Shown here: positions 2,556 through 45,519 of the stretch, one piece after another
How the letters are laid out: each line of letters starts with the position of its first letter
Numbering within the stretch: position 1 is the first letter of the stretch
Virus record (IMG/VR): IMGVR_UViG_3300037067_022526
Coordinates: 32,001 to 96,000 of that record
Origin: a virus
Taxonomy: Duplodnaviria > Caudoviricetes
DNA length: 64,000 bases
Direction: 5' to 3' (one strand)
Notes under the pieces: generated by a model
The model's input: only the letters and a program-made list of their open reading frames with translations
What the model was told of the DNA's origin: nothing
Database searches by the model: none
Made by a program: the position numbers and the translations under genes

Positions 2556-2573
2556 ATAACGAGGATTAAAATC

Positions 2574-2981
2574 ATGATTATTCCCGCAGGGAAACATAAA
2601 CACCAAGTTAATCAGGGTGGTCGCAAAAATGAGACCATTATGGACAGTGACATATTTAGTAAATTGGCAGCCGAACTTGGAGCTGTCAAAGATCCAATAG
2701 ACAAACCAGAGGTATCCATAGAAAATCCACAACCAGAACGACCTGACCCATCTGGCTCATCTGACCCATCGATACAAAATGCCGTCGAACAAGGCACTTT
2801 GGCACAGAATGCGCCGCCGAAGCCAGCAGAATCACCTAAATTAGACTGGAAAACTGTTGCGGCCCAAGTCGAAGATTTCGTACAAAAAATTTCAAATGGC
2901 ACTCTTGAGGTAAAAGACCAAAAAAGAGGGCCCGATGGCACATGGACTATAACATTCGGACCAATAGGAGTGGCAAGATAA
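2574..2981 (+). CDS. Hypothetical protein
   Basis: GAGG RBS; its TAA overlaps the next ATG (TAATG). Confidence 0.55.
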   Translation: MIIPAGKHKHQVNQGGRKNETIMDSDIFSKLAAELGAVKDPIDKPEVSIENPQPERPDPSGSSDPSIQNAVEQGTLAQNAPPKPAESPKLDWKTVAAQVEDFVQKISNGTLEVKDQKRGPDGTWTITFGPIGVAR

Positions 2982-3979
2982 TGAAGCTGTCAGGACATTC
3001 ATATAGCAATGACGTATTCGACAGTCTTATGGATAACATTCAAAGTGACGTTATTTATAAAACAAATAAAGTGAGTTCATCAGATTCCCCAATCTCAAGC
3101 ATGGACGTATTTTCTTCCATTACTGAGAACGATTTGCAAGAGATACGGGAAGATATGCGAGGGGATATTATAAACGAACTGCAATTTGCTGCAGATAAAG
3201 CAAACGTTGTCATAGCAAAAGATGATGTCGTTAGGTTTGCAAAAGATGCAGAAAAAGATGGACTAAGAGGCAAAGAGCTTGAACGTGCAGCCCAAAAATT
3301 CTGTAATAAGATTTCCAGCGCAATTGCTCCACCACAAAGTTCATCCCGCAATTCGTCTGAATTACTGCTTACTGCTAATAACTCAGCAGTTATACCTGCC
3401 GGTTACAATCCAGAGCACGGACCCAGTGATTCTAAAACTGGCGGTTATATGGGTATGTCTCAGAATCCTAATACAATTTGGGACTCTGACGCATTAGATA
3501 TTCTTGCACAGAAACAAGCAGGCGATGAACAAATAAAAGAGTCCAAGAAAAATATGGAAGAATTTAAGAAATCTCAGAAAGAGCAGTATTGGGATGAAAT
3601 TCAAAAGCAGGGATCCGATGCTAATGTACTAAAAGAAAAAGTAGCGTCGGTTGCTAATGTTTCAACGTCCGAATCCAGCGCTGGGAACCAGAATCTTCCG
3701 TCCAATTCTATGAGTATTTTTAGTAATGATAGGGATTTTTCCAATATACCAGATTCTACAACGGGTGAATCGATCAAGAAGTCAGCACAGGAAAGAGCCA
3801 ACAAAAAAGAGGCATCTAAATCTGAATGGAATAAAGTTGAACCTGCCAAAAAGGTTGACAATCTCGGCATATTAGATACTCCAGAATCAAAGAATACTAT
3901 TAAAAAGAACAGCCATAGAGAATCTGTTGACCAACTTTTTGAGGGGCTTCTTGAAGCCGGATTCAATCCAGAGAGCTAA
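2981..3979 (+). CDS. Hypothetical protein (start reassigned to ATG 2981)
   Basis: AGGAG about 10 nt upstream and TAATG coupling to the previous ORF. Confidence 0.65.
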   Translation: MKLSGHSYSNDVFDSLMDNIQSDVIYKTNKVSSSDSPISSMDVFSSITENDLQEIREDMRGDIINELQFAADKANVVIAKDDVVRFAKDAEKDGLRGKELERAAQKFCNKISSAIAPPQSSSRNSSELLLTANNSAVIPAGYNPEHGPSDSKTGGYMGMSQNPNTIWDSDALDILAQKQAGDEQIKESKKNMEEFKKSQKEQYWDEIQKQGSDANVLKEKVASVANVSTSESSAGNQNLPSNSMSIFSNDRDFSNIPDSTTGESIKKSAQERANKKEASKSEWNKVEPAKKVDNLGILDTPESKNTIKKNSHRESVDQLFEGLLEAGFNPES

Positions 3980-22390: not shown

Positions 22391-22554
22391 TCATCCCTTC
22401 ACGTCGGATTACACACATTTTATTAGAGGAATATTCCTTTGTTTTTTCGAATAGGAGAAACATATTGGAATATACTTCGACATACCATGTGACGAACATC
22501 TTACAGCAATTAGGTTGCTGCTTAAATTACAGTACATTTACAAGGAGATAGCAA

Positions 22555-25500
22555 ATGCTGGATGCCAAAACTAGACAAGCTCTTGCTGAAAAACTTCAGG
22601 GGCACATCAAGAAGGCGAGTTCGAATGTCTCTACAAAAGTAGAAGCCGAAAGAGGTGATTATAAGATAGTTTTAACTGCTGACAAAATTACCCAACTATA
22701 TAAAGGACAAACAGTTGGGACTATACGAGTTGCCGAACTAGATGAAGACACAATTGGATACATTAACTCCAATCCCGATGAATCAGCAAGAACAATGTTG
22801 GATGGTTTCCGAGAGAATTTTGATATTGATGAATTTGAGAAAACAGCAGCACATTCCACGCAAAACGAAGATACATATCAAAAGGTAACCCAAAAACAGC
22901 TCGATGACCAAAAAATTACTCTGCACCCACGAACTGATGAACATTACAAAAACATAACCCAAAAACAGATTCCAGAACATGGTCAGCGTCCAGGAACGTA
23001 TGAATATACCACAGAAGCACAATTAAGGGAAGAGCGCGAAACTTTTTATGGAGCTTCCAGAACCAGTGGTGATTGGAAACAGGAAGACCGGAACGTTGTA
23101 ACCGAAGGGCAGTTCGATGAAGGTGTGAATACTTATAGTGATATCGGGGAGACCAACAGAGGTGAAATAGGCGCGAATTATGACGGTGGCTTAGATAAGC
23201 AGTGGAAGCAAATTGGCGAAAAACAGCTCATGGAGTTGCTTAAGAGCCATGAATGGACTGAACCATTAACAATCACAGAAGGCAAAGACCAGCTAAGCAA
23301 GCAGGATGGCGAATTAGCGCGGCTTACGGCTGAAGTAGCAAATAATATTGTTAAGGAATCTTTAAATACTTTAGGCAAGACAGTTCTGGCGGCAGGGATT
23401 ACACCCAAAGAGTTGGCCGGAATTGTTCAAAGGCTTATTTCGCATGAAAGTAAATACAGCGTTTTGGCAAATGTTATCGCCAATTATAAACCATCCGATG
23501 TGGCAGCGATTAATCGCAAAGTTGCCAAAGCACAAGTATTTGGCAAGACCGCAAATACTGGTGCCGATTGGTCACCATACTTGGCTGCGGATGTTTTGAT
23601 TCGGCAGCTGTCAAAACTAGCATATGCTCCACAGTATATCGTGGACGGGCTAGTAGCACTATCAGAACAGGACCTTGAAGGAAAGATATCAGAGGCGTGC
23701 GAGCATTGTTTAAACGCCAAAGAAGAGGACAAGAAGGCAAATTCAAGTGTTGATATATTTCGCAAGGTTATCGCAGAGCCAGTAAAACCCACCAAAGATG
23801 TTACAGTTGGCGACGATTCCGACGGTATGTATGCCTATAAAGGGCTAATTTCAGAAGTGTCCGCAAGCACAAGTGATCGGAAGAAGTTTGCAGATGCAGC
23901 AGCCACATTGGCCAAAGCCAAAGTTGCAGAAACCACTGGAAAAGAGTTAGAGTTGATTCCGCAGTCTATTGATGTCAATGAAGATGACGGACATTTTGAG
24001 GTCATCCTGATTGACGCGAAGAAAAACGAAGAAACCCTAAAAGTACGAGCCGAGAAGCGACGTACTATGGTTAAGGAAGCCCAGATGGGAGGAGCTGGCG
24101 GAATGCCTCCGGCTGCTGGCCCAGAAATGGGAAATCCAGCCGCGCCTCCGGGCGGCGGTGATATGGGTATGCCACCTCCTGGTGAAGCTTTGTCACAGGC
24201 TCCTCCTGCTGAAACACCAGATGTAGAAGAGACCACAGGCGAGCCGCAACCTCCGGGTTCTGTTTGTCCGGTTTGTGGGTCGAATGATGTTGACGTAGAT
24301 AATGGTGAATTTCGATGCAATAATTGCGGCGGTGAAGGCAATATCTCTGTCCGCATGGAAGTTTCCAAGTGGCCAGAGACCATACAGGAAACCGAAGAAC
24401 AAGGCGATGAGGGATTCGGACTCGGGGCAGAAGAAGAATCTTCTGCCGCAGCCAGTGAAGAGGGGCTTGGTGGTGAAGGTGGTCCAATGGGTGGCGAAGG
24501 TGAAGGAGCCACATTACCCAATGTCCCCGTTGGGGCGTCTGTTAAGGTTCGAGACATTTTGAAGAAAACGGCTCAATCCAATTTAAATCCATATTTAGCC
24601 TCTGTCGTGAGAATTACACCTGTAGTTTTGGAGAAGATTAAAGCCGAAAATATTAAGATTGGTAGCGTTTGTCCCAATTGTGGTGGACATAATACCGATC
24701 TATTAAAGTCAGAATTTCGCAAAGGTCAGGATGGCATTTGTTGGGATTGCTTGCAGGAATATAACATGCAAGTTCGTTCTGCGAAGAACCAGAAACATAG
24801 AGTTTATGCTCAGTATGTCTGGAAGCCAAACAAGATAGCAGAGTCAGAGTGTGATGGGTGCAACCGGTTAAAGGCTGCATTTATCCAGTCTTTGGAAAAC
24901 TATGGAATTAATTGGAATAAATTTGCTAATACACGAACAGTAAAAGAACAGGGCGATATTATTCTTAAGATGGCAAAAGCCGGTGCTCTCGATTTGTCTG
25001 ATGGCCTCAAAGCCACATTGCCACTAGAGAAAGTCGCAGCCAGCCCACGGTGGAAGGGATATGACAAACTTGACAAATTCCCATCCTCTTCGTGCTTGGA
25101 GCGAATATCTCGTAGATTTGGCGAAAATGCCACATCCATGAGTGGTCCATGCCAGGGCAAACCACTGGCAGAGTGTGTATGTGGACAATTGGAACAGCTA
25201 AAAATTTATTCCGATGGTCTTGCTGCCAAAGTGGCATCAACATATATGAGCAACGATCCTATGATTCATAGTCCAGTTAAAACGTGTATTGCTATGTTTG
25301 TAAAGGATGATTACAACTTTGATGATGCCTGCACAATCTGTGAAGGTCTGCGGGCAGCTCATGCAAGCATAGAAGATTTGGTGATAGAAGCAATTGCTCA
25401 AATTGGTCCATCGCCAAGACTCAAAATGCCTAAACCAATGGCTCCCAAGCCAATGGCTCCTAAACCAATGGATATGAGCACTCCGACAGCAAAGCCGATG

Positions 25501-28776: not shown

Positions 28777-29646
28777 ATGTTAGACAAGACAAAACTTACT
28801 AATGCCCAGAAAGAGGCAATCATAGCCCAGGCATTGAACACTGACGAGGGTAGAGTTGCTCTAGCGCAAGCTATGGTCGAGCCTATTCGTCGGTCCCTGG
28901 AATACCAGGCGGTAGGACGCAAGCTCCTGTTGGTAGACGAGCTACCCCAGGGTGCTTTGGCCCGTTACGAGCGCGACGTGAGCGCAATTGGCCATATAGT
29001 TGCTCGCCGTGGTGCTGTGCCCGATCAGATTCAGGAAGGTGAAGAAATTCTCGTTCCGACATTCGAAATCGCTGCAAATCCACAGGTTCGTTTGTCTGAG
29101 ATTAAGGCTCGCCGGTTTTACATTGTAGACAGAGCCCAGATCAAAGCCAAAGAAGCAATCCAGAAAGAGGAAGATGCGAACATCTTCTCGGCTCTAATTG
29201 CTGCTGTGGATACCCGTGGTGATCAGATTGTGACCAACTTTGGTTCGCTATCTCCTGCTTCACTTAATACTGCTTTCCGCTTTATTGAGCAGCACGACCT
29301 AGTTGCAACCAAGATCGTCGTTCATGCCAACCAGTATGCGGGTATCCGTGTATTTGGCAAGGACTTCTATGACGAAGCAAGCACTCGCGAGATTCTCACC
29401 AGTGGTTTGTTCGGTCACTTGTGGACGGCAGATATCCACGTTTCAAGCAAAATGGATCCTGATGTAGTGTTGGTAGTAGCATCTCCTGACACAGTCGGGG
29501 CTTTTCCAATTCGCCAGGATATAACAGTTTTGCCTGCAGACGATCCAAAGAAATTGCGGCTCGGCTGGGTTATTTATGAGGAAGTAGGAATTGTGGTAGT
29601 CAACGACTACGCAGTGAGCAAGATCGAAGTTGGTCTAGCTACCTAA
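28777..29646 (+). CDS. Major capsid protein (HK97 fold)
   Basis: LAQAMVEPIRRSLEYQAVGRKLLLVDELPQG...PTFEIAANP...LGWVIYEEVG; strong RBS; followed by a terminator. Confidence 0.85.
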   Translation: MLDKTKLTNAQKEAIIAQALNTDEGRVALAQAMVEPIRRSLEYQAVGRKLLLVDELPQGALARYERDVSAIGHIVARRGAVPDQIQEGEEILVPTFEIAANPQVRLSEIKARRFYIVDRAQIKAKEAIQKEEDANIFSALIAAVDTRGDQIVTNFGSLSPASLNTAFRFIEQHDLVATKIVVHANQYAGIRVFGKDFYDEASTREILTSGLFGHLWTADIHVSSKMDPDVVLVVASPDTVGAFPIRQDITVLPADDPKKLRLGWVIYEEVGIVVVNDYAVSKIEVGLAT

Positions 29647-31700: not shown

Positions 31701-32878
31701 TGCGAAAAAATTCATCAATAATTTTAAGAATTAGCCAAGAAGATAACTTGCTATTAGATGTTAAATCTAAAATACTTAAAACTAATAAGTCCCAACTGTT
31801 GTTAAATGGGGCATTTAATTATTGGAATGGTAGCGATAAAGAGTGGTCAGATAAGTTGCTTAAACTATACCAAGAGAGTGATACAAATAAATCCCACATA
31901 GTTAATATGGTATTCGCATACTATCGCAGAACAGGGTATCCTCACCGCAAATTATCTAATCAGGATATGATTAAAATTATGCACACTTTATCTTCCACTA
32001 AGAATCCACTGATAGGTAATGACCATTTGCAGACCAACAATGTGGGTATACCCGTAGCTAGTTGTTTCCACCCTCATATGATGAAAGTGCGATGCCTATC
32101 CAGGTATTTGTCTCCCTCAGAATTATATAATAACGACGAAAAGTTTAAAGACGCCATCAATCGTTGTTTTGAATTGGGTAACAAACCAAACGAAGCGAAT
32201 ATTCGCCGTATCCTCCGCACTCGTGACGGTGTCCGTAGTGCAGTTAATTTTAAGCCAGTTATAGCTAAATATATTTATCAGAACTATGCCCCCACCGGAG
32301 GTAAGGTCCTCGACCCTTGCGCTGGCTACGGTGGCAGACTAACCGGACTTATCTCTACTAATAAAAACCTTCTCTATCACGGTATAGACCCCTGCCCAGA
32401 GACCACAGTGGGTAACACCCAACTAGCAGCCTTCTATTCCCGCCTATACGAACCCATAACTAAAGAATTGCAGTGGAAGTTTAGGTTTCGTCACGATTTA
32501 GGTTGCGCAGAGGATGTCTTGCCCACTTTGCCAGATAAAGAATATGATTTGGTCTTTACTTCGCCACCTTATTTTAATGTAGAACAATATGACACTTTGC
32601 CTAATCAGAGCTACCTCAGATATCCTGATTATGAGTCCTGGCGGGATAAATTCTTATCTGTTTTAATCAAAGAATCTTGCCGGGTCTCCAAGCAGTATGT
32701 AGTATTAAATGTTAAAAACTATAAGAGCTATCCGATAGCAGACGATGCTCTAAAGTTTGCGGAGCAAATGGGATATGGAATACATAAGACTTACCAAATG
32801 AGATTAGCCAATAGCGAATTTCACAGAAGAGAGAGTGAACCGACATATCATGTTGAACCTATTTATGTGTTGTTGTGA
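31697..32878 (+). CDS. Amino-DNA methyltransferase (N4-C or N6-A) with possible N-terminal RHH-like segment
   Basis: Motif I VLDPCAGYGG and motif IV FTSPPYF. Confidence 0.85.
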   Translation: MMRKNSSIILRISQEDNLLLDVKSKILKTNKSQLLLNGAFNYWNGSDKEWSDKLLKLYQESDTNKSHIVNMVFAYYRRTGYPHRKLSNQDMIKIMHTLSSTKNPLIGNDHLQTNNVGIPVASCFHPHMMKVRCLSRYLSPSELYNNDEKFKDAINRCFELGNKPNEANIRRILRTRDGVRSAVNFKPVIAKYIYQNYAPTGGKVLDPCAGYGGRLTGLISTNKNLLYHGIDPCPETTVGNTQLAAFYSRLYEPITKELQWKFRFRHDLGCAEDVLPTLPDKEYDLVFTSPPYFNVEQYDTLPNQSYLRYPDYESWRDKFLSVLIKESCRVSKQYVVLNVKNYKSYPIADDALKFAEQMGYGIHKTYQMRLANSEFHRRESEPTYHVEPIYVLL

Positions 32879-33239
32879 TTCACTCCCCTCCCCTTCATAG
32901 AGGAGAATCACCGATAATTGGGTGTTACCCACTACGGTTTCGTTGCAATTCACTCCCCTTTTCAGGGGAGAAACACCGTGGCATAAGGAGAAACAGCAGT
33001 GGCAAAGGTTGCAATTCACTCCCCTTTTCAGGGGAGAAACACCATTGGCGCATTGTTCTGTTGCCATGTCGTTGTTGCAATTCACTCCCCTTTTCAGGGG
33101 AGAAACACCCATCGAGTGATGTAGCGGTGAAAGCGTCGGTTGCAATTCACTCCCCTTTTCAGGGGAGAAACACCTTTATCTTTGCTGCTGCGTGGCCGTG
33201 GCCGTTGCAATTCACTCCCCTTTTCAGGGGAGAAACACC
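32872..33239 (-). CRISPR. CRISPR array 1: five identical 36-bp repeats plus one degenerate terminal repeat, five spacers of 29-30 bp
   Basis: + strand repeat GTTGCAATTCACTCCCCTTTTCAGGGGAGAAACACC at 32942, 33008, 33074, 33139, 33204; degenerate copy 32872-32912. Confidence 0.97.
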
Positions 33240-33350
33240 CGAGCACTCATAACTTGATATAATTCAGCACCTTATGAGTATTCAGGGTCACAAATTTTGA
33301 GTCGCCCAATTCACTTTTCAAAGAACACTTCCCATTTTCTACGAATTCTC
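33240..33350 (-). promoter_or_regulatory. CRISPR leader 1
   Basis: Near-duplicate of 36162-36275; contains the inverted repeat ACTCATAA/TTATGAGT. Confidence 0.75.
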
Positions 33351-33380
33351 AGTATATTGTACTTGCTCTGCTGCTAAAAG

Positions 33381-35687
33381 TCAAATCAATTCTTCCATGT
33401 ATCCCAAAAATTCAGTATCGTATTTTCCTGACCACACACACATTCCAGGTATTTTTTCATAGGGTTTAGTATAGTTTAAAATCGTTTTAATATTGCCTTC
33501 GAAAATTTGTACACTATTTCTAACTATATCTGTCGATGTTGGATATTCGATATTATCTATGTTTTCTGGTTTAACTATAACAGTTATTTTATTATTAGGT
33601 ATAACCTGATAAATGTCACCAACATCTTTCATGTATTTTTTTTGTTCAAAGCTCATTAAGCTCCCGATTGTAACAACTTTGTTATTTAAATTGCCAACTA
33701 CATTAAGATTGCCTATTTCATCTTCCATTGCTTCTGCGCAATGTTCTGGTCCTATTTTTCCGAGAGCGTAATATTCTCGAAAAATTTTTGCTCCATCTCT
33801 GAATTCTTTGTTTTCAGTAAAATCATCTAAATCTAACTCGAAAACGTATAGTGTGGAATCATTAAAGACATTATCTCGATTGATTCGACCAGCCAATTGC
33901 AAAGCACTATTTAAATTGCAGTTTTCTCTGAAACCATTTCTGAAAGAAATGTTTATTCCAGATTCTATGCACGATGTTGCAATTAATATGAAATTCTCAT
34001 CGGAACTTAATCGTGATTTGATATCTTCTAATATGACCTCTCGATCTGTAGCACAAAGTGCTGTGGACATGTGTAATACATGTTCACGCCCAATTATCTT
34101 TGATATTGTTTTTGCAACCAATGCTGCGTTTTTGACAGTGTTAAAAACCGCTACTACCGGACCTTTGCTGCGCTCATTTATAACAGCATTACAAATTTGG
34201 GGTAAAGATAGTTTATTCCAATGCCCGTTATCTTGTATGCCGCCTAATTGCTTTATTGTAACTCTGGATTTTTCTTGTTTAAGAGTTATCTCTGAAATCT
34301 CTGGTGGAACTATAGATGGGACATTATAATCAAAACCATCTAAGACATATTTTCTAAATCGCTTGATTTCCCAAGGCTTCGTCATAGACCCAGACACAAA
34401 CAGTACTCGGCATCCCATATTTTCAACTAACCATTTTAAGTAATATAATGTAAGTGGCCACAATTTTGAGGGCAGGCAACAATGAGACTCGTCAAAAATA
34501 ATGAATTTACCGGCTAAATTGAGATACTTTCTAAGCTTTTTAGGTGTGTATCCAGCCAAAGTTTCACAAAATTGTACTGCGGTTGTGCAGGTAATTGGAC
34601 AATTCCATGTCTGTGTATAAAGTTTTGCGGATAGATCATGTTCAAAATCTACTCCAAGATGATGCTCTGCAACGGTTAATTTATCATCTTCTTCGGGCAA
34701 AACAATTGCTTTTCTATAAGTGTCTGCAGTTTGGCTAATAATATTAGTATAAGGTGCAACATAAATTATACCTGACATATTATTAGTATTAACAGTATGT
34801 AAAGCATATGCCAAAGATGATAAAGTTTTGCCATTACCAACTTCACTAGCAAGATATGTAAATGATGCGGAAATTTCTGAATGTCTACACGATTGATATA
34901 TAGCTTGCCTTATTTTGTTCCTCTCGGTTTCTGCTGAAAAGCTACTAACATATTTATCTAGTTGTAGTAATCTTTCATTTGCTTTTATTGGGATTGTGTC
35001 TTCTACTATGAAGTTCTTGTAATTTTTAGCAGTGTCATAGTAGTCTGCTGTTACGAGTACGCTTAATGCTAATCTTGATAGTGGAGCACTAATATTCTTG
35101 TTATAATTCATTCCGCTTTTCAGAGGAGAAACACTTAGGGGTTCAACTAAATTTATTTCTTTTTTATGAAGTTCCATTAGCTTGTCTAATTTTGCATCGA
35201 CATATTCGCTCATGAGCATGTCTGTTTCTTTTACCCACGGACATCTTTCCCCTAGTAAATTATTATCTCGAAGGTCATCGTATAGATTTTTTTGGTATCC
35301 GAGATGATGAGCGAAAACAAGCCATGCTGCGTACCTATATTGATCTGATAAAGACATGTTCCCGTTTTGTGCTGCCTTGTCACATTGACTTATCAGATAA
35401 GACACACCGGCATCAACATGATTTGGCATTTTACAATTTAATACTTTACCACTTAAAACCATTTGACAATAAGGATCAAGCTTCCCTGTGTCATGGTACA
35501 AAATTGCGGTTAATAAATGACATTTTAGAAAATTATAATGATCTTCTGATATGAATGATTTTAATTTTTCTATTTCTTGCTCTGCTTTTAAGTATACACC
35601 AGATATATGATCAATAAAAGATTGTTCTGGAATGTTTCTTTCCAAATCTGCTGAATGGGCTAAGTTACAATTCACTCTACTTTTCAT
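33381..35687 (-). CDS. cas3: Cas3 HD nuclease-helicase
   Basis: AHS...H...YHDTGK HD domain; VGNGKT; IFDESH; ATSCIESGINI; QLAGRINR. Confidence 0.93.
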   Translation of the reverse strand: MKSRVNCNLAHSADLERNIPEQSFIDHISGVYLKAEQEIEKLKSFISEDHYNFLKCHLLTAILYHDTGKLDPYCQMVLSGKVLNCKMPNHVDAGVSYLISQCDKAAQNGNMSLSDQYRYAAWLVFAHHLGYQKNLYDDLRDNNLLGERCPWVKETDMLMSEYVDAKLDKLMELHKKEINLVEPLSVSPLKSGMNYNKNISAPLSRLALSVLVTADYYDTAKNYKNFIVEDTIPIKANERLLQLDKYVSSFSAETERNKIRQAIYQSCRHSEISASFTYLASEVGNGKTLSSLAYALHTVNTNNMSGIIYVAPYTNIISQTADTYRKAIVLPEEDDKLTVAEHHLGVDFEHDLSAKLYTQTWNCPITCTTAVQFCETLAGYTPKKLRKYLNLAGKFIIFDESHCCLPSKLWPLTLYYLKWLVENMGCRVLFVSGSMTKPWEIKRFRKYVLDGFDYNVPSIVPPEISEITLKQEKSRVTIKQLGGIQDNGHWNKLSLPQICNAVINERSKGPVVAVFNTVKNAALVAKTISKIIGREHVLHMSTALCATDREVILEDIKSRLSSDENFILIATSCIESGINISFRNGFRENCNLNSALQLAGRINRDNVFNDSTLYVFELDLDDFTENKEFRDGAKIFREYYALGKIGPEHCAEAMEDEIGNLNVVGNLNNKVVTIGSLMSFEQKKYMKDVGDIYQVIPNNKITVIVKPENIDNIEYPTSTDIVRNSVQIFEGNIKTILNYTKPYEKIPGMCVWSGKYDTEFLGYMEELI

Positions 35688-36161
35688 GGAAGAAACACCT
35701 CAATAGTAAGACTTTCAGTTGTAATTCACTCCACTTTTCAAAAGGGGAGAAACACCACGCCCGCCGATCTTTCCGCCGTCGGTTCCGTTACAATTCACTC
35801 TCTTTTTTCAGGAGAGAAACATCAAGTGTCAGCGTCATGTTGCAAGTCTTTCAAAAAATTAGTTGTAATTCACTCCCCCTTTCGGGGGAGAAACACCTCG
35901 TGATTTATGTTACCTATGCACTCGGCGGTTGCAATTCACTCCCCCTTTCGGGGGAGAAACACCTATACCCGAGTGGGGTACAGAAGTTGGCGTGTTGCAA
36001 TTCACTCCCCCTTTCGGGGGAGAAACACCCCCGCTCGTATAACATACCGTAACTGCCAGGTTGCAATTCACTCCCCCTTTCGGGGGAGAAACACCCGTCC
36101 TGAGAATCAAGCAATGCTAGGTCTAGTTGCAATTCACTCCCCCTTTCGGGGGAGAAACACC
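35664..36161 (-). CRISPR. CRISPR array 2: five canonical and three degenerate repeats
   Basis: GTTGCAATTCACTCCCCCTTTCGGGGGAGAAACACC at 35928, 35994, 36060, 36126 (one-base variant at 35862); degenerate copies at 35664, 35718, 35787. Confidence 0.95.
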
Positions 36162-36275
36162 CGAGCACTCATAACTTGGTATAATTCAACACTTTATGAG
36201 TGTTTAGGGTCACAAATTTTGAGATATTTGGTTTACTTTTCAAAGAACGCCTCTCGTTTTTTGCGAATTCTAGCT
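36162..36275 (-). promoter_or_regulatory. CRISPR leader 2
   Basis: Homologous to leader 1; IHF-like ATTCAACACTTTA. Confidence 0.7.
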
Positions 36276-37250
36276 CAGATCATGTACTTCAAAACTGAAT
36301 CCACATTCCGCAGCATTGGGTACATTGTAATCACTTAGACATATTGGTTTGTCGTTTTTTGCAGTAGGCTTAAGATTATTTATAAATTCAGTTTCTTTGA
36401 AACTTCCAATAGTATTAGAATGGTCTGCCCACCAAACATGTTGTAAATTCATCGAACCCGATGGACGTGCACACGAAGACGATGTTTCGAAAATATGTGG
36501 TAGTATTTTCTTAAGAATATCAATATCTTCTTGGGCAGCATTGGTCAGATGGGCACAATGCGGGTTGACGGAAATTAGTTGATAATACATGCCGTGACGA
36601 ATAAATTTTAGCGCATTTGGACCTATATCTCCAGAAGGATCTTTATCTTTGATCGTTCTTCCTGTATCTGTTGCCAGATGATCTGCGCTTAATGGCGACT
36701 TTTTTGTAACACTTGCCTCGATAATTTCCACTGGCGCAATTGAACACCCGACACCAATCGAAACACATCCAGTACGAACAAATCGAGGTTCTTCTTTCTT
36801 TTCCTTCTCTAGCCCATCTGGTAGAGCTGTTGTTCCGAAAATCCTGACATCAAAATATCGATTTAAAAAGGCTTCAGGGTCAGACTTGGCTAGCGCCATT
36901 GCTTTTCTGGCACATTCAAGCTCTGATGTTCCAGCGTACCCTTTGTTGCGGCTTTCAAATACATACAATCGTTCAGGGTCAAGATTGTCTCTCTTTACAA
37001 AATCCTTGAAAACCGGATTATCATGATCGGACAAGAAATCCCTGATCTTCCTTTTAATAGACATTGGTGATACCCACCCATATCCATCTGGAAATGTGCG
37101 TGGAGCATTTCCTACATCCGGGTCTCCGTTGGGATTTCCACAAATTACTTCATACACTAGCATTCCAACACTGCGATTCAATTGATACATTTTTTTCTCC
37201 AAAGTTGAATTTTCTGTTACGATCGTTTCTGATTTAATTGACTTATTCAT
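36270..37250 (-). CDS. cas7: Cas7 (Csd2, type I-C)
   Basis: GNPNGDPD...NAPR, SIKRKIRD, YFDVRIFG; start moved to ATG 37250 behind a GGAG RBS. Confidence 0.93.
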   Translation of the reverse strand: MNKSIKSETIVTENSTLEKKMYQLNRSVGMLVYEVICGNPNGDPDVGNAPRTFPDGYGWVSPMSIKRKIRDFLSDHDNPVFKDFVKRDNLDPERLYVFESRNKGYAGTSELECARKAMALAKSDPEAFLNRYFDVRIFGTTALPDGLEKEKKEEPRFVRTGCVSIGVGCSIAPVEIIEASVTKKSPLSADHLATDTGRTIKDKDPSGDIGPNALKFIRHGMYYQLISVNPHCAHLTNAAQEDIDILKKILPHIFETSSSCARPSGSMNLQHVWWADHSNTIGSFKETEFINNLKPTAKNDKPICLSDYNVPNAAECGFSFEVHDLS

Positions 37251-37716
37251 TGTTTTCTCCATTCGGATTTTCCACAGACACTTTTTCAAGATCAACACCG
37301 ATCTCTGACTTGACTGATTTTGGCGACCTATAAGCATATCCCATTTCCAGGAGTATTTTATAAATATCAGGATCAAACTCATTAAATTGGTTAACGCTCT
37401 TAAATTGATTATTATGTAAATCAGGCATTATATTCATAAGTTTACTAATTATTTCTTTATATTCTCTGATTGGCAAATAACCATGTTTATATGGCTCTTT
37501 TTCTTTGCGAATATAATTTTCTGCCCAACATTCGTACTTAGAAAAGTTTCCTATAAATGTTCCTAGCGCTCGTTTTGGAAATTTATATGCTTGCTGTATA
37601 TATTCTTGTCCGATAAGCTTTTGAGGTTCATTTATCCCTCTACTCTTAAAATATATTCGGTGAATATTGTTTGCTTGACTAAATAATTGTCCCATTAAAA
37701 ACGGCACACTGTTCAT
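37243..37716 (-). CDS. cas11: Cas11c, translated internally in frame from cas8c
   Basis: Internal AAGGAG-N6-ATG just before NSVPFLMGQLF, the arrangement known for type I-C. Confidence 0.65.
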   Translation of the reverse strand: MNSVPFLMGQLFSQANNIHRIYFKSRGINEPQKLIGQEYIQQAYKFPKRALGTFIGNFSKYECWAENYIRKEKEPYKHGYLPIREYKEIISKLMNIMPDLHNNQFKSVNQFNEFDPDIYKILLEMGYAYRSPKSVKSEIGVDLEKVSVENPNGENNE

Positions 37717-39186
37717 GATCATCTCCTTTGTAAAACCATTTTTACTCAAAACAATCCCCGAAATTGGCACCAGCCATTGCCGTTCATACGGCATTTTTTC
37801 TAATTTACCATCAGAACACTCAATTAGCATTTTGGTATGATTTTTTGCAAATATGCGAGTAACTTTTTTAATTGCTTTTTCGTTTTCGAAAAAGAAGTCG
37901 TATATATCTGAAATTGTTATATACTCTCGCTCTATAATAGATGATATTTTATTACGATCATTTTTCCATATTTTATTAATACATTTAGAAAAATTAGAAA
38001 TAGTTGGCGGGAGAAATTTGCCTTTGCAAACAAATTTAGACGGACGAGTTGATGTTCCGGATACCCATTTGTTTACACAATTAGCAATATTTTTTCCATT
38101 CATTTCTTTATGATATTTAATTTGACACGCACCATTTTTGGGTATAAATAGGACAAAAATTGAACATTGAAATGGTGTTTTATTAATCTCACCGTTTAAC
38201 ATGTGAACAATCTTTTTGCCCTCTGCCTCCCATTGTTCAATATCCATTTGGTTGGATTCTTCTGTTCGACCCTCAATCCAGTCAGATGAAGGTGATAGAG
38301 TAGTAATAACCAAATCTCTTCCGTTGTCTTTTTGGATATAATACCAGAGACCATTTCGAGTGCCTTCTTTTCCTAAATTGTTATAATAAAAATTCTCAGA
38401 TACAATAGAATTGATGATTTTCAGTATTTGTTTGCGAGTAGAATTTCCGATTTTGCACGCATTTACACCAGACATGCCAAATCGTTCATAGCATTCATTA
38501 TCCTCATTTTTAGAATAAAGTTTTATTGTGCCGACGCCGCAAGGGAGCTTGGTTTCAAATGTTTTTGATTTATTTTCCCACCCATCGGCAGGATTGTTGA
38601 GTATGTCGATATCGATAGATGAGTTTGTTTGTTTAGAAATAAGCCAATCATTCACCACCTTCATTGACTCACTATTTTGAACCTTATTGGAAAATTTTAA
38701 TTGTTTCCAATCTGGAATGTCTAGAGAAAAATAACAACTTTTGATCTTTTTATCTTGTTGTGAAATAAAGTCATCTAATTTGTTCATTAAAGCATTTGGA
38801 TCAATTCGAGATAATCTATTGGATAATTCTTTGAAAGCACAAAACCTATCTTGATCATCTATATGTTTAGATATATCGGAATGGCAATATAAATGATGTT
38901 TAATTCCATTCAGTCTTTTCTTAGAATCTTTATTAGTGTCATATTTGAAAGTAAATCCAGATGCAAAATTAGAGTATTTAAAATATCTAAGATCGGAAGC
39001 AGACTCAGACTCAAAAGGTTCGATAGCGATATCAAGATTCTTATCAATTAATATAAGAAAACGTTGACCGTTATTATTTTTGGGCATTTGTGGATGCCAC
39101 GTTGTATCGTTTGTGTTTGATAAATCCCCAATATTCAGACCCCAGCTTTTTAAACTTTCTTCAATTGATAATATTTCATGCAACAT
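37243..39186 (-). CDS. cas8c: Divergent Cas8c large subunit
   Basis: Position between cas5 and cas7; 647 aa; C-terminal PFLMGQLFS helical domain. Confidence 0.7.
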   Translation of the reverse strand: MLHEILSIEESLKSWGLNIGDLSNTNDTTWHPQMPKNNNGQRFLILIDKNLDIAIEPFESESASDLRYFKYSNFASGFTFKYDTNKDSKKRLNGIKHHLYCHSDISKHIDDQDRFCAFKELSNRLSRIDPNALMNKLDDFISQQDKKIKSCYFSLDIPDWKQLKFSNKVQNSESMKVVNDWLISKQTNSSIDIDILNNPADGWENKSKTFETKLPCGVGTIKLYSKNEDNECYERFGMSGVNACKIGNSTRKQILKIINSIVSENFYYNNLGKEGTRNGLWYYIQKDNGRDLVITTLSPSSDWIEGRTEESNQMDIEQWEAEGKKIVHMLNGEINKTPFQCSIFVLFIPKNGACQIKYHKEMNGKNIANCVNKWVSGTSTRPSKFVCKGKFLPPTISNFSKCINKIWKNDRNKISSIIEREYITISDIYDFFFENEKAIKKVTRIFAKNHTKMLIECSDGKLEKMPYERQWLVPISGIVLSKNGFTKEMIMNSVPFLMGQLFSQANNIHRIYFKSRGINEPQKLIGQEYIQQAYKFPKRALGTFIGNFSKYECWAENYIRKEKEPYKHGYLPIREYKEIISKLMNIMPDLHNNQFKSVNQFNEFDPDIYKILLEMGYAYRSPKSVKSEIGVDLEKVSVENPNGENNE

Positions 39187-39203
39187 TTTTAATCTCCATT
39201 TAA

Positions 39204-39887
39204 TTATTTATTTAAATTTTCGTTTTCAAACTTTAGAATTCCATTGGCTGCGATTACTTTCTCGGGACCAAGTTGTAAAATTCCATGAGCGATTCGCAAA
39301 GTTTCTGTTATTGGAAATTGCATAATATATCCATTTTTTTTGTCAAAATATTGTAGGACATATCCGTGTAAAATTTCATTATAATCAGAAATTATGGGAG
39401 TTATAGGTAATCCGACATAATCAGAAAAAAAGTCGCTCGGACCAAGTGTCGGCATTCGATAATATTGTTCTTTACTTAATCGACGATAAAATTGATCGCG
39501 ATATGAATGGGCACAATTAATATGTGCGTATTTTGGGTGAGGTGGTTCTACGGTAGACCTTTTGGCGGTTGCACAAATTTGAAATCTAGGGCGAAGCAAA
39601 GCTGTAGCTTTTATTTGACATGCATTTCCATCTCTTTTCTGTCCTTCTTTTCGAATTGATGACCACGAATTAAAAGCATAATCTAAATATTCTGGTCGGT
39701 GACATATCCCGATAGCTTCTATTTGTATGGATGCACTTTTAACTCTTAAAATTGACTGCATTATACCAAATGCCGCAGTGGGCGTAGGAACTGGATAACT
39801 ACATGGTTCTGATCCGCTATCAGGTCTGGCGAACATGCCTATGGGTCCGCCAACCTCGAATATGATTCCGTAAGATTTCTGGTACAT
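39204..39887 (-). CDS. cas5: Cas5 (Cas5d-like, type I-C)
   Basis: FEVGGPIGMFARPD...SYPVPTPTAAFGIMQSI; AAGGAG RBS before ATG 39887. Confidence 0.9.
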   Translation of the reverse strand: MYQKSYGIIFEVGGPIGMFARPDSGSEPCSYPVPTPTAAFGIMQSILRVKSASIQIEAIGICHRPEYLDYAFNSWSSIRKEGQKRDGNACQIKATALLRPRFQICATAKRSTVEPPHPKYAHINCAHSYRDQFYRRLSKEQYYRMPTLGPSDFFSDYVGLPITPIISDYNEILHGYVLQYFDKKNGYIMQFPITETLRIAHGILQLGPEKVIAANGILKFENENLNK

Positions 39888-39906
39888 TCTGAATCTCCTT
39901 TCAAAC

Positions 39907-39935
39907 AATTATAACCTTAGCGTGATGGGAAGTCA
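39907..39935 (-). promoter_or_regulatory. sigma70-type promoter of the cas operon
   Basis: TTGACT-N17-TATAAT on the minus strand. Confidence 0.8.
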
Positions 39936-39973
39936 AGCGAGAGATATTAGATTTTTTAAAAATATTCGTGGCC

Positions 39974-40002
39974 TTGACAATTTACGTAGCAGGCAATATA
40001 AT
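39974..40002 (+). promoter_or_regulatory. Consensus sigma70 promoter, divergent from the cas promoter
   Basis: TTGACA-N17-TATAAT. Confidence 0.85.
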
Positions 40003-40011
40003 GGATTGTAA

Positions 40012-40046
40012 GATGTTTCTCCCCTAAAAAGGGAGTGAATTGCAAC
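40012..40046 (+). repeat. Solitary CRISPR repeat
   Basis: GATGTTTCTCCCCTAAAAAGGGAGTGAATTGCAAC, in crRNA-sense orientation. Confidence 0.9.
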
Positions 40047-40068
40047 GTGATGATGTCGAGGAAATCAG

Positions 40069-40353
40069 ATGTGGAATTTGACAGAACACGCAAAACCGGT
40101 CACCGGAGAAGAATCTTTAGTAATTTATACTTGTCCGCAATTTCTTGAGGACGAACATCCTGGTATATATTACATACACGAAGCATACTGTATACACAAT
40201 GGTTTCTGTCGTTATTACCCGGATGAAGGTTGGTTCTGTGGGGATAATAAAATGCCAGAACCCGTAGCGTGGATCCGTCCCGAAAAATTGTTAGAGTATT
40301 TTTTGACGCAACTACCCAGCAAAGATCAGTCAGCTACAACACCTTTCAGATAA
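40069..40353 (+). CDS. Hypothetical protein, paralog of 45268..45519
   Basis: MWNLTEHAKPV...WFCGD.KMPEP.AW.RPEKLLE shared with the paralog. Confidence 0.75.
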   Translation: MWNLTEHAKPVTGEESLVIYTCPQFLEDEHPGIYYIHEAYCIHNGFCRYYPDEGWFCGDNKMPEPVAWIRPEKLLEYFLTQLPSKDQSATTPFR

Positions 40354-41252
40354 TCAGATATCGCAGTCCTGATGATATCTACGTAAGAAATTTCACAGTC
40401 ATTTTCATATGCTTGCTTGCGGGCAACTCTTTTTAATTGTTCTAATTGATCACTCAAAATTCGGATGCTGATTGTGATATTCTCAACGACATTTTGAAAT
40501 TTCGACCCAAATTCACATCCGAAATCGCCATCAGACATATGTTGGTTTTCTTGCCGCAGCATCTCTTCGGTATAATCGGTATTCACTTCCCATGTGGGTA
40601 GTTGGCATATCAACCTGTAATCAGGTGCAGTTGAAATTAAATTATATAATAAATCGCCTTTGCGCCTTGGTGACGAGACTATAATAGTTCGTGATTCATG
40701 CACTCCGTCATGTTTGAAGTCGGCAGTGCTGGGAATCAATGCATTATAAATTCTATCACCCGACTGCCCTGGAAATGACGCGATCTCATTGAATACAAGA
40801 GTGAAATATCGCTTGCCCAGGAGATTTGAACTATTGGCGTGAGCAACCATTAAACAAATGTATCCTGATCGATTCCGCCTTGGCAACCAAATTTTGTTCT
40901 GCTCTATTTTGGTTATCTCATCTCGAAAATACTCAGATCGAGTAACAAGCAGTTTCAACTCCGTGAAGAAAGATCTTGCCTCCTCTGCACTATTACAAAC
41001 AGCAAGCTGATAAATCGTGTCCTGGTTTGGGATATTATAATATTCAAACGGATTTGGTATTTCTAATAGTCGCCGTGTCTCTGCCAGTAGCAGCAGTGTA
41101 GCAAGATAATCCTTTCCGCTACGTCTTCCCAAAACGGCAACTAACTCTCGGTATTGTCCAATATAGAAGTTGGACATGATTTCTTTTAACCTCGGATATA
41201 ACTTAATGTTAGGTGTAATTAAATATTGCTCGATAAATTCCATTGAAGTCAT
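40326..41252 (-). CDS. Terminase large-subunit ATPase-like domain fused to a C-terminal ribbon-helix-helix
   Basis: GRRSGKD Walker A; LVFNEIASF Walker B variant; IVSSP motif III; LPTWEVN; EFGSKF; then TISIRI...YVDIIRTAISDYL; start ATG 41252 behind AAGGAG. Confidence 0.75.
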   Translation of the reverse strand: MTSMEFIEQYLITPNIKLYPRLKEIMSNFYIGQYRELVAVLGRRSGKDYLATLLLLAETRRLLEIPNPFEYYNIPNQDTIYQLAVCNSAEEARSFFTELKLLVTRSEYFRDEITKIEQNKIWLPRRNRSGYICLMVAHANSSNLLGKRYFTLVFNEIASFPGQSGDRIYNALIPSTADFKHDGVHESRTIIVSSPRRKGDLLYNLISTAPDYRLICQLPTWEVNTDYTEEMLRQENQHMSDGDFGCEFGSKFQNVVENITISIRILSDQLEQLKRVARKQAYENDCEISYVDIIRTAISDYLKGVVAD

Positions 41253-41357
41253 AAAAAGCTCCTTTCTACTAATACTTACTTCGCTGTCATAATTATTTCC
41301 TGTAAGAATTATGACAAAATTTACCACATAATACATTATACAGCGCAGGAGATGTGG

Positions 41358-41583
41358 AATGTTTCTTCAATGAAGTGAATTGCAACTTGACAACTCCCAC
41401 AGCCAGCAGTATAATGAGCCGTAAGATGTTTCTCTTTTGAAAAGAGGAGTGAATTACACAACATGGTAGTGTGGATTTTACTCATCAATGCCATACTTTG
41501 TGCATTATTCTTCTTTTTCGGCGTTTTCTGCGGATGGAGTTTAAGCTCGGATATAGATGTTTCTCCCCTGAAAAGGGGAGTGA
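41358..41583 (+). repeat. Cluster of three degenerate CRISPR repeats with an embedded promoter
   Basis: Copies at 41358-41386, 41425-41462 and 41556-41583. Confidence 0.8.
41387..41415 (+). promoter_or_regulatory. Consensus sigma70 promoter
   Basis: TTGACA-N17-TATAAT. Confidence 0.85.
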
Positions 41584-41840
41584 TAAAAAATCATATTGCT
41601 GCCGGACAGAAGGGTGCAGAGCTTTTGCGTAATAAATTTGGACTTATTAATATAGAAACCAGATCGGAAAGATACCCCGAGTCCCAAAGTATATCTCCGC
41701 AAAAGGCCCTAGATTTATTAAATGTATCTTGTGTTTGGATATCCAAACCATCTCTTAATGTTGTCATAGAGACATCGACAGGGAATTACCGAGTGAGATT
41801 CAGTGAATTTGACCGATACTTTTTATGCGGAGACAAATAA
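41463..41840 (+). CDS. Hypothetical protein with N-terminal transmembrane helix
   Basis: Hydrophobic N-terminus; RBS supplied by a repeat; contains a repeat fragment. Confidence 0.5.
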   Translation: MVVWILLINAILCALFFFFGVFCGWSLSSDIDVSPLKRGVIKNHIAAGQKGAELLRNKFGLINIETRSERYPESQSISPQKALDLLNVSCVWISKPSLNVVIETSTGNYRVRFSEFDRYFLCGDK

Positions 41841-43441: not shown

Positions 43442-43627
43442 ATGATTGGGTTTGAGTGGAATTATTGTGGAGTATGTGGATGTCGGTTAGCCCCTGACGA
43501 TTTTGATGGTATTTGTTGGGATTGTGACCGCAAATGTCGTATTTGTGGTTGCGAGCTTTCGGATGAAAATACTGGTACGATTTGCCCTGTCTGCGGAGAA
43601 TTAGAATCTCGACTGGAGATCACATGA
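43442..43627 (+). CDS. Small double Zn-ribbon protein
   Basis: Four CxxC pairs in 61 aa. Confidence 0.55.
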   Translation: MIGFEWNYCGVCGCRLAPDDFDGICWDCDRKCRICGCELSDENTGTICPVCGELESRLEIT

Positions 43628-44004
43628 ACGTAAAATGGCGTAATAGTGGTAAATTTGACAAAGAAGCAATAAATAGAGGCTCTCAGCCTATATTTCTTCC
43701 AACTATAATATTCAGCATCATAGCCTATTTGTATTTCGGTTGGATATCAGTGATACTTATAATTCTCGCTGGTGTCATTGCTATATATTTTATAGGTAAA
43801 CATACTAAATCAATGTATTGCTCAAAGCATGATTGCCCTATAGAGGAAAGACATTGGGATTTTTACGATGTAGAATATTATTGTCCGACATGTCATGAAA
43901 AAGAAGTGAAGGAATACAAACAACAAGTAAGAGAAGCACGTATATCTGAGTATGCAGAAGGTGCCCGCAGGGCGCTATTAGAGCAGGATCGAGATTATAC
44001 CTAA
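43624..44004 (+). CDS. Membrane protein with Cys/His cluster (tandem paralog 1)
   Basis: Two hydrophobic helices; CSKHDC...CPTC. Confidence 0.65.
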   Translation: MNVKWRNSGKFDKEAINRGSQPIFLPTIIFSIIAYLYFGWISVILIILAGVIAIYFIGKHTKSMYCSKHDCPIEERHWDFYDVEYYCPTCHEKEVKEYKQQVREARISEYAEGARRALLEQDRDYT

Positions 44005-44066
44005 TTTAACCATCGAAGAATGTTTGAAATTATTAGAGAAAAATTAGAATCTCGACTGGAGATCAC

Positions 44067-44348
44067 ATGAACGTGACATGGCGTAATAGTGGTAAATTTG
44101 ACAAAGAAGCAATAAGCAGAGGATGTAGATTTATGATGCTTCCAGTTGTAATGTCCAGTATTATAACTTATATGTACTATGGTTGGATACCACCAGTAAT
44201 AATAGTTTCTGTTGGTATAATATCTGTTTATTTTATGGGTAAACATACTAAATCAATGTATTGCCCAAAACATGATTGTCTCATAAAGGAAAGACGTTTT
44301 GATTTTTATGATGTAGAGTATTATTGCCCGAAATGCTCGAAGAGGTGA
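44067..44348 (+). CDS. Membrane protein with Cys/His cluster (tandem paralog 2)
   Basis: DNA-level duplicate of 43624, including upstream sequence. Confidence 0.65.
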   Translation: MNVTWRNSGKFDKEAISRGCRFMMLPVVMSSIITYMYYGWIPPVIIVSVGIISVYFMGKHTKSMYCPKHDCLIKERRFDFYDVEYYCPKCSKR

Positions 44349-45037: not shown

Positions 45038-45280
45038 ATGAACGCGTTGCTTGTCGGCAAGAGAGAAGAGGACGGTCAATTCCATGTTTACCACATGGCA
45101 CTTTATCCCGAGACCCCAACTCAGGTTGACATAGACGATCTCCGTCGAGAATTATCTGAAACCCCAGAATTTGGACTGATGGACAGAATAAGCGAAATGG
45201 AAATACGAGCCACAGTGCTGAGACCAGAGGCGGGACAGCCGCCACCGGAAAACAAGGAGAGTGAAAAATGTGGAACTTGA
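45038..45280 (+). CDS. Hypothetical protein
   Basis: GGAG RBS. Confidence 0.5.
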   Translation: MNALLVGKREEDGQFHVYHMALYPETPTQVDIDDLRRELSETPEFGLMDRISEMEIRATVLRPEAGQPPPENKESEKCGT

Positions 45281-45519
45281 CCAAGAATGCGAAGCCTGTC
45301 TCGGGTGAGGATTCTCTCGTAATTTATTTTCACCCGCAAATTGGTCATTATATTCACGATGGCTTCTGTCGATACTTTCCACCTTATGACAGTCGTGAAG
45401 GCAAATGGTTTTGTGGTGACGATGAAATGCCTGAGCCGATTGCGTGGATGCGTCCTGAGAAGCTGCTTGAGTTCTTTCTGGTAACTAGTGCAGGACAGCC
45501 GCCGCTGGAAAACACATAG
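45268..45519 (+). CDS. Hypothetical protein, paralog of 40069..40353
   Basis: Sequence similarity to the paralog; AAGGAG RBS. Confidence 0.7.
   Translation: MWNLTKNAKPVSGEDSLVIYFHPQIGHYIHDGFCRYFPPYDSREGKWFCGDDEMPEPIAWMRPEKLLEFFLVTSAGQPPLENT

Follow-up and report, generated by a model that had tools for sequence, protein, structure and literature searches.

The stretch of viral DNA analysed here (the window) comprises 64,000 nucleotides, bases 32001-96000 of a 137,762-bp IMG/VR virus record that is rated complete and carries an exact inverted terminal repeat of 127 bp at its ends. On the minus strand, positions 40326-41252 encode a 308-aa paralog of the large terminase subunit (TerL), in which a TerL-type ATPase-like domain is followed by a predicted ribbon-helix-helix (RHH) tail; the stop codon occupies 40326-40328. 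The start at 41252 agrees with the N-termini of all homologues, and a ribosome-binding site, GAAAGGAG, is located 6 nt before the ATG (41259-41266, minus strand). A longer frame of 336 aa reaching to 41336 (P0002) was rejected as a gene-caller extension across the operator-like sites described below, with both the ribosome-binding site and the homologue N-termini favouring the 41252 start. The first-pass annotation had drawn the same reading frame, and these two features support it. All the motifs quoted there were also found in the protein, namely GRRSGKD (aa 42-48), LVFNE (aa 152-156), SSP, LPTWEVN and EFGSKF.

The gene lies, as had been described, on the strand opposite to the head genes and is flanked by two promoter-repeat cassettes. 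Each cassette consists of a consensus promoter and a solo CRISPR repeat, and the two are found on the plus strand at 39974-40049 and 41387-41458. Downstream of the paralog, on its own strand, follow the genes of a type I-C CRISPR system in the order cas5c, cas8c, cas7 (Csd2), an array, cas3 and a second array; no cas1 was found in the genome. A CRISPR-associated role was considered, the gene heading the cas5-cas8c-cas7-array-cas3 cluster, and was rejected on the contexts of its relatives and on the promoter of cas5, which is its own (11/12, at 39936-39908). No Cas family was detected among the genes called around seven other family members, nor were CRISPR repeats beside them; genes found around such members include those for replication, for sugar nucleotides, for giant fibre-like proteins and for a DNA ligase. 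Since other family members occur without cas neighbours, the adjacency to the type I-C operon is taken to be incidental.

The ATPase-like domain and the phage's own TerL

The TerL-type ATPase-like domain spans aa 1-250 (40503-41252, minus strand). The protein matches phrog_2 (terminase large subunit, PHROGs) with an E-value of 9e-11, and its ATPase domain shares 38% identity with that of the phage's own TerL. Using tblastn against phage records, aa 4-252 were aligned with the N-terminal halves of annotated cyanophage TerLs (S-CBS4 and Ma-LMM01 gp118) at 25-28% identity. AF2 prediction from a 5-sequence alignment gave a pLDDT of 54 and was unusable; the model employed here was obtained from a 34-sequence alignment, with a pLDDT of 94.2. 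In Foldseek searches, the top PDB matches of this model were the TerL ATPase domains of P74-26, T4, Sf6 and HK97 (E 7e-10 to 1e-7), and its viral structure matches were terminases without exception. An N-terminal ASCE P-loop ATPase fold with a Walker A motif is present in both model and sequence. The structure prediction suggested with the first-pass annotation thus returned a TerL ATPase fold followed by a strand-helix-helix tail, and the assignment to the TerL type made at that stage stands on the profile match, the identity to the own TerL, the model and its structural matches together.

Common family models contribute little to this assignment. A Pfam search with the whole protein and an NCBIfam search gave no match, and a PDB sequence search returned noise only. 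Precomputed annotation assigns the paralog and its relatives to Pfam PF27249 (MJ0330_N, the N-terminal P-loop domain of M. jannaschii MJ0330), a label also carried by 91% of the members of an ESM Atlas cluster of 318-aa viral proteins. This label is silent on the RHH tail, the Walker B change and the operator, and a literature search on MJ0330 yielded no paper.

Walker A reads GRRSGKD (aa 42-48; 41109-41129, minus strand). The GKD ending is not a defect of this protein: GKD is a trait of the clade, present in the phage's own TerL and in 30 of ~104 full-length relatives, so that genuine TerLs share it. The proposed change in Walker B is real. The motif reads LVFNE (aa 152-156; 40785-40799, minus strand), with Asn in place of the Asp that is invariant in 106/106 full-length TerLs, and it departs from the hhhhDE pattern of functional TerLs. 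Other ATP-site residues are retained, including the Q motif, the Lys and Args of Walker A, the catalytic Glu and the C motif. The chain ends at aa 308, ~50 aa past the ATPase fold, and the RNase H-like nuclease domain is missing, as had been stated before; a search with the C-terminal 267 aa of the phage's true TerL matched 82 relatives, all of full length, and none (0) of the short proteins. The paralog is therefore a TerL ATPase fold without nuclease, in which one key catalytic residue has been lost and the ATP pocket is otherwise kept.

The true TerL was sought elsewhere in the genome, as had been advised, and was found by tblastn with the TerLs of Ma-LMM01 (gp118) and S-CBS4, which gave a match at genome positions 23895-25358 with an E-value of 2.6e-35. 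The full-length gene occupies genome positions 22461-25484; the window begins 6.5-9.5 kb further on, and the paralog is ~48 kb away. Its ORF comprises 1007 aa and is interrupted within the P-loop by a LAGLIDADG intein (VLGRR, intein aa 113-490, SGKD). Its Walker B reads LLLDE, thus with the DE pair, and it matches phrog_17415 with an E-value of 2.4e-19. The C-terminal domain (267 aa) shows homology to the corresponding region of annotated terminases; the nuclease assignment rests on this homology, since the C-terminal half of the protein gave no match when searched by sequence against the PDB. A 148-aa ORF in the small-terminase position overlaps the start of the true TerL, and a 612-aa ORF lies upstream of TerL in ~40 related loci, forming a conserved ORF612-ORF148-TerL module. 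The paralog lies outside this packaging module and is not the sole terminase-type ATPase of the genome.

Whole-genome scans with the Terminase_6N, Terminase_6C and TerL_nuclease models gave no match, and the only match in a phrog_2 genome scan was the paralog itself. The paralog was at one point considered as the only terminase of the genome, and this was dropped once tblastn with the cyanophage TerLs had revealed the true one; because of that finding, the missed matches of the common terminase models reflect blindness of the models and not absence of the gene. Two ORFs immediately preceding the portal gene, of 768 and 623 aa, were also checked as TerL candidates and rejected. The annotation of this phage is thus corrected: its real TerL is the 1007-aa gene with the intein, which escapes the common terminase models. 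The possibility, raised at the outset, that the paralog is half of a split functional terminase is contradicted by the presence of this full-length TerL, and tblastn found no second nuclease-like piece in the genome.

The predicted ribbon-helix-helix tail and the sites upstream of the gene

The RHH tail (aa ~255-308; 40329-40490, minus strand) was delineated from the model and the family alignment. In the AF2 model aa 253-266, which include the strand ITISIRI, are extended and are followed by helix A (267-284) and helix B (290-307), giving a strand-helix-helix arrangement. When aa 250-308 were predicted as a homodimer, a score of 0.68 was obtained, compared with 0.00 for the best of 3 controls; the score mark used for such predictions was reached by 20/30 solved same-chain pairs and by 1/23 solved single chains. 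The runs (n=3) agreed in at least 96% of contacts, with a partner pLDDT of at least 80. The predicted contacts 262-262 and 260-264 describe a symmetric antiparallel ribbon, and 297-297 packs helix B on helix B. RHH dimers are solved folds, and for this reason the prediction indicates likeness and not binding, and the predictor may be reproducing known structures.

Profile models gave matches below their thresholds, namely RHH_1 with 15.1 bits (cut-off 20.5; E 0.023) and CopG_antitoxin with an E-value of 0.012 (in 2/5 members), and the PDB profile match of the tail was 2k9i with an E-value of 1.3. The tails of the family follow the motif T-V-S-L-R-L, a helix I..LK.IAR and then D.DI.Y.DLIR.AI..Y, and one member has a canonical short-loop tail, RGYKNTNELIRKMINKHL. 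The ribbon residues T, S and R, which would face the bases, are conserved in the main clade. The last ~55 residues of the paralog are thus predicted to form an RHH dimer, and the earlier proposal of a C-terminal RHH domain is borne out at the level of prediction, by the strand and two helices of the model and by the homodimer score, with the curated models staying below threshold.

The same tail was found in two other settings in related phages: on its own, as a 59-aa gene that overlaps the beginning of a gene with an HNH motif, and N-terminally in a 410-aa protein that is otherwise unrelated. Both have their own upstream repeats. A travelling RHH module of this kind fits a regulatory tail that fixes the dose of an effector which may be harmful.

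Upstream of the paralog, two tandem 16-bp palindrome-like sites were identified, which together read TGTCATAATT-N12-AATTATGACA. The first, TGTCATAATTCTTACA (41301-41316, minus strand), matches the palindrome TGTCATAATTATGACA at 14/16 positions, starts 64 nt before the ATG and overlaps a candidate -35 element, TTGTCA. The second, GGAAATAATTATGACA (41285-41300, minus strand), matches at 13/16, starts 48 nt before the ATG and overlaps a candidate -10 element, AATTAT. The promoter in question, TTGTCA-17-AATTAT, is weak, and the sites lie just downstream of a perfect TATAAT. The 10-mer TGTCATAATT occurs once per strand in the 137.8 kb genome, only upstream of the paralog. One further 13/16 site is found in the genome, inside a distant ORF, where ~1 would be expected by chance. 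These two tandem operator-like sites are new in this analysis, as features read from the sequence.

Five phages supplied the 300-nt upstream regions from which the motif was derived. At five other loci, sites matching at 13/16 positions or more start at -64/-48, -61/-45, -73, -63/-47 and -55 (here -64/-48), and in 58.8 kb of those other loci 7/7 such sites fall within -80 to -40. The consensus was drawn by eye from the same sites that were then counted, which makes the count partly circular; only the positional concentration is independent, since a fixed position across independent loci does not follow from the way the consensus was made. The sites also overlap plausible -35 and -10 elements, and therefore part of their conservation could be promoter sequence. 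In divergent family members, other palindromes are found at the same upstream place. That five other phages have the same motif in this position points to autorepression by the RHH tail at a putative operator.

Negative autoregulation is the simplest and most likely reading of these sequences, as in Arc, CopG and the RHH antitoxins. The likeness to RHH autorepressors (Arc, Mnt, CopG, omega and type II antitoxins) lies in the predicted antiparallel-ribbon dimer, in the repeated, palindromic sites over the gene's own promoter, and in the occurrence of the module before, or fused to, other effector genes. In contrast to these repressors, the RHH of the paralog is C-terminal to a 250-aa ATPase-like domain, its inter-helix loop is ~6 aa longer, its tail falls below the Pfam RHH thresholds and its sub-sites are 16 bp apart. 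The paralog had also been proposed to regulate the neighbouring promoters. This was not borne out as stated: the strong sites are confined to 41285-41316, no operator-like site was found in either promoter-repeat cassette or at the cas5 promoter, and the relatives occur without cas genes or repeats.

A family of short TerL-like proteins

A profile search over 1.84 billion representatives was carried out and gave 1908 relatives. Some 30 of them are short (283-371 aa; 31 rows of this kind in the search), with matches that run through the C-terminal tail, and more than 100 are full-length TerLs that match in the ATPase part only. It was found that Walker B is DE in 106/106 full-length rows, whereas the 27 RHH-bearing rows show NE (17), ND (3), SE (2), GE, CE, LE and DN (1 each) and DE (1). 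The Asp-Glu pair is hence altered in 26/27 RHH-bearing short forms versus 0/106 full-length TerLs. The remaining ATP-site columns, namely the Q motif, GRRSGK, the catalytic Glu, S-x-P, TWEVN and EFG, are conserved in the family.

When a tree was built from the ATPase columns, all full-length TerLs fell on one side of a branch with an SH-aLRT support of 93, and the RHH-bearing forms all lay outside it, on longer branches. From these positions, the paralog (P0001) is therefore not a recent copy of the phage's own TerL. A single clade of the RHH-bearing and non-DE rows was not rejected (p-AU 0.451), which is compatible with a single origin and does not prove it. Judged from these alignments, the paralog family is an old, conserved second TerL-like copy.

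The paralog is absent from three complete phages of 460-550 kb that share the TerL type, and its co-occurrence with a full TerL is shown for this genome and for one 124-kb fragment (G011). Family members have varying neighbours, and often no adjacent gene shares their strand. The paralog is thus an accessory gene. A literature search on terminase paralogs with an RHH tail found nothing specific. On sequence comparison, the family appears to consist of terminase-ATPase-derived, RHH-fused and putatively self-regulated accessory proteins, for which PF27249 (MJ0330_N) is the only database label.

Possible roles of the paralog

To our knowledge, no enzyme of tailed phages is more conserved than terminase, which is also a main target of bacterial immunity based on pattern recognition. 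Stand-alone forms of the terminase ATPase domain have only now come to notice, with T4 vs.8 as the example, and we know of none with an assigned function. With the TerL ATPase domains of P74-26 (7KS4/4ZNL), T4 gp17, Ma-LMM01 gp118 and S-CBS4, the paralog shares the fold, the Q motif, Walker A, the catalytic Glu, the C motif and TWEVN/EFG. Unlike TerLs, it has Asn for Asp in Walker B and a predicted RHH tail in place of the RNase H-like nuclease, lies outside the packaging module and is accessory.

According to the available part of one report, vs.8 is a stand-alone, nuclease-less TerL-ATPase-like protein of T4-like phages, found beside the true TerL over a restricted taxonomic range, and it activates EcAvs2 on co-expression (PMC13601566). 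By architecture and by that description, the paralog resembles vs.8 as a nuclease-less TerL ATPase paralog beside a true TerL, and vs.8 is its nearest published counterpart in kind. The two differ in that vs.8 keeps Walker A and Walker B whereas the paralog family has lost the Walker B Asp, and in the putative DNA-binding tail of the paralog, no counterpart of which is mentioned for vs.8 in the same part of the source (PMC13601566).

The paralog is tentatively read here as an accessory, non-motor TerL paralog, a self-repressed, ATP-binding mimic that acts on the packaging machinery, a reading that we hold to be quite possible, if somewhat short of probable. RHH dimers would bind the tandem 16-bp sites and repress transcription of the paralog's own gene, and such autorepression would make the gene a self-contained, dosage-limited cassette. 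Changes of the Walker B Asp are taken to abolish hydrolysis in other P-loop ATPases and in T4 gp17 mutants; by analogy with these, the ATPase-like domain would bind ATP with little or no hydrolysis. On this view the protein would mimic the terminase ATPase and exert its effect through binding, without translocating DNA. The likeliest target, and the weakest step of the proposal, would be the packaging machinery, that is, the TerL ring or the portal of the own phage or of co-infecting relatives, where an ATP-locked paralog subunit would brake or poison the motor. Such a poison would endanger the own phage too, which counts against a packaging target.

Among the alternatives, the one that survives best is an anti-defence protein directed against host sensors of terminase ATPases (Avs1-3 and Upx), which we consider unlikely. 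The nuclease-less, dimeric, ATP-bound mimic would occupy or mis-assemble the sensor, or the Asn variant would be a TerL-like protein invisible to it. The available part of the vs.8 report states that the TerL ATPase domain alone is recognised by EcAvs2 and Upx and that EcAvs2 reads terminase-bound ATP together with the Mg hydration shell (PMC13601566). The authors of that report suggest that vs.8 may be an anti-defence protein, yet this single tested case, as described there, triggers the sensor and does not block it (PMC13601566). The paralog family is fast-evolving, patchy and located in variable accessory regions, as would suit such a role; against it, PADLOC gave no match for the paralog, and known anti-defence genes are not consistently nearby.

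A packaging-site adaptor, similar to the small terminase, was also considered and appears improbable. Here the RHH would bind a pac-type site beside its own gene, and the ATPase-like domain would recruit TerL. The fusion of a site-specific DNA-binding tail (as predicted) to a TerL-like domain is in keeping with this, as is the uniqueness of the site pair in the genome, and in P22, SPP1 and P1 the gene of the recognition subunit contains or adjoins the pac site. However, the position expected for a small terminase is taken by the conserved ORF148, which overlaps the beginning of the true TerL gene, and the paralog is missing from the three complete phages with the same TerL type. The sites are moreover fixed at -48/-64 over promoter elements, like autoregulatory operators, and the record ends with their 127-bp inverted repeat are distant from them.

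A pure nucleotide-sensing transcription factor, acting on neighbours that include the cas operon or the promoter and solo-repeat cassettes, is very improbable. The RHH tail is combined with an intact nucleotide pocket, and the gene is situated between the cassettes and adjoins the cas5 promoter; but the cassettes and that promoter have no operator-like site, the sites of at least 13/16 in the genome being the two upstream of the paralog and the one in a distant ORF, no other family member adjoins cas genes, and cas5 is served by its own 11/12 promoter. That the paralog is itself a functional packaging ATPase, as a split-terminase half or as a phi29-like nuclease-less motor of an inverted-terminal-repeat genome, is hardly credible, because the full-length TerL with its DE Walker B and C-terminal domain, the altered Walker B Asp-Glu pair in 26/27 family members and the absence of the gene from complete relatives all contradict it, although the paralog is the only phrog_2 match in the genome and the record has 127-bp inverted terminal repeats.

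The preferred reading thus remains that of a self-repressed, ATP-binding mimic of the terminase ATPase acting on packaging. A more specific version, in which an ATP-locked, non-hydrolysing mimic kept at a constant low level by its RHH autorepressor would serve as a weapon or a shield, either poisoning the motors of co-infecting related phages or jamming the immune sensors of terminase ATPases, is possible but doubtful. To the stand-alone terminase ATPase copies, this family adds three features: the Walker B Asp is lost almost throughout, mostly through an isosteric change, with the ATP pocket otherwise retained; a predicted RHH tail is fused to the domain; and a conserved putative operator lies at the gene's own promoter. 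If the protein does interfere with packaging or with terminase sensing, the family would constitute a new class of conflict proteins in phages, with a core enzyme of virion assembly as their source.

The true large terminase and its neighbours

The full-length large terminase (TerL) of the phage is encoded about 48 kb from the short paralog, as a 1007-aa ORF on the plus strand at positions 22461-25484 of the whole record (genome coordinates hereafter; 2461-5484 of stretch L007), 6.5-9.5 kb ahead of the start of the window. Its Walker A loop is interrupted by a LAGLIDADG-type intein, which occupies residues 113-490 between VLGRR and SGKD. The protein was missed by all four of the Terminase_6N, Terminase_6C, TerL_nuclease and phrog_2 models; it was recovered by phrog_17415 and by tblastn using cyanophage TerLs as queries. 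Directly upstream lies a 612-aa ORF (genome 20213-22051, L007:213-2051), which has no Pfam or PHROG match; some 40 related loci in IMG/VR keep it immediately 5' of their TerL gene. Between the two is a 148-aa ORF (genome 22012-22458, L007:2012-2458), also kept by the nearest relatives, which may be the small terminase.

Variation in the paralog family and its RHH module

One distant member of the family, encoded on a contig of 278 kb (L088), has the ribbon T-V-T-M-R-L, and a perfect 18-bp palindrome, CATGAAGTTAACTTCATG, overlaps its start codon (L088:5985-6003), in the place where the operator-like TGTCATAATT-type sites would otherwise stand. The RHH module of the family was also found in two other settings. 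In a 461-kb DTR phage (L097:1492-2422), it makes up a gene of its own, coding for 59 aa, that overlaps the 5' end of a 253-aa HNH-motif gene. In another related phage it forms the N-terminus of a 410-aa protein without a recognisable domain (L104:421-1653, minus strand). The upstream repeats differ with the setting, being inverted TTACTTAAT for the 59-aa gene and three copies of TGTAATC for the 410-aa protein.

Phage-encoded CRISPR-Cas and the paralog locus

The phage carries a type I-C system on the minus strand (window 32862-39936), comprising cas5c, cas8c, cas7/Csd2, an array (~35650-36162), cas3 (HD and helicase) and a second array (32862-33240); the 137.8-kb genome as a whole has no cas1. 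In minus-strand sense, the CRISPR repeat consists of a stem-loop and the 11-nt handle TGAATTGCAAC. Beside the paralog, plus-strand cassettes (window 39974-40049 and 41387-41458, and also 41555-41583) pair a perfect TTGACA-17-TATAAT promoter with a lone CRISPR repeat, in crRNA sense, within ~8 nt after it. They precede ORFs 40069-40353 and 41463-41840, and the two 59-nt cassettes, 73% identical, form direct repeats on either side of ORF94 and the paralog.

Small plus-strand ORFs near this locus are present as duplicates in the window. The start of ORF94 (40069-40143) is repeated at 45268-45342 with 71% identity, and a 294-nt segment coding for a Cys-rich membrane protein occurs twice (43599-43892 and 44042-44335, 80% identity).

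Record ends and affinities

An exact 127-bp inverted repeat, either genuinely terminal or an artefact of assembly, is present at the termini of the record (genome 1-127 and 137636-137762). The major head protein (window 28777-29646, plus strand) shares 54% identity with gp27 of Bacillus phage G, whereas the terminases closest to the phage's own are those of cyanophages (Ma-LMM01, S-CBS4); the affinities of the phage are thus mixed.
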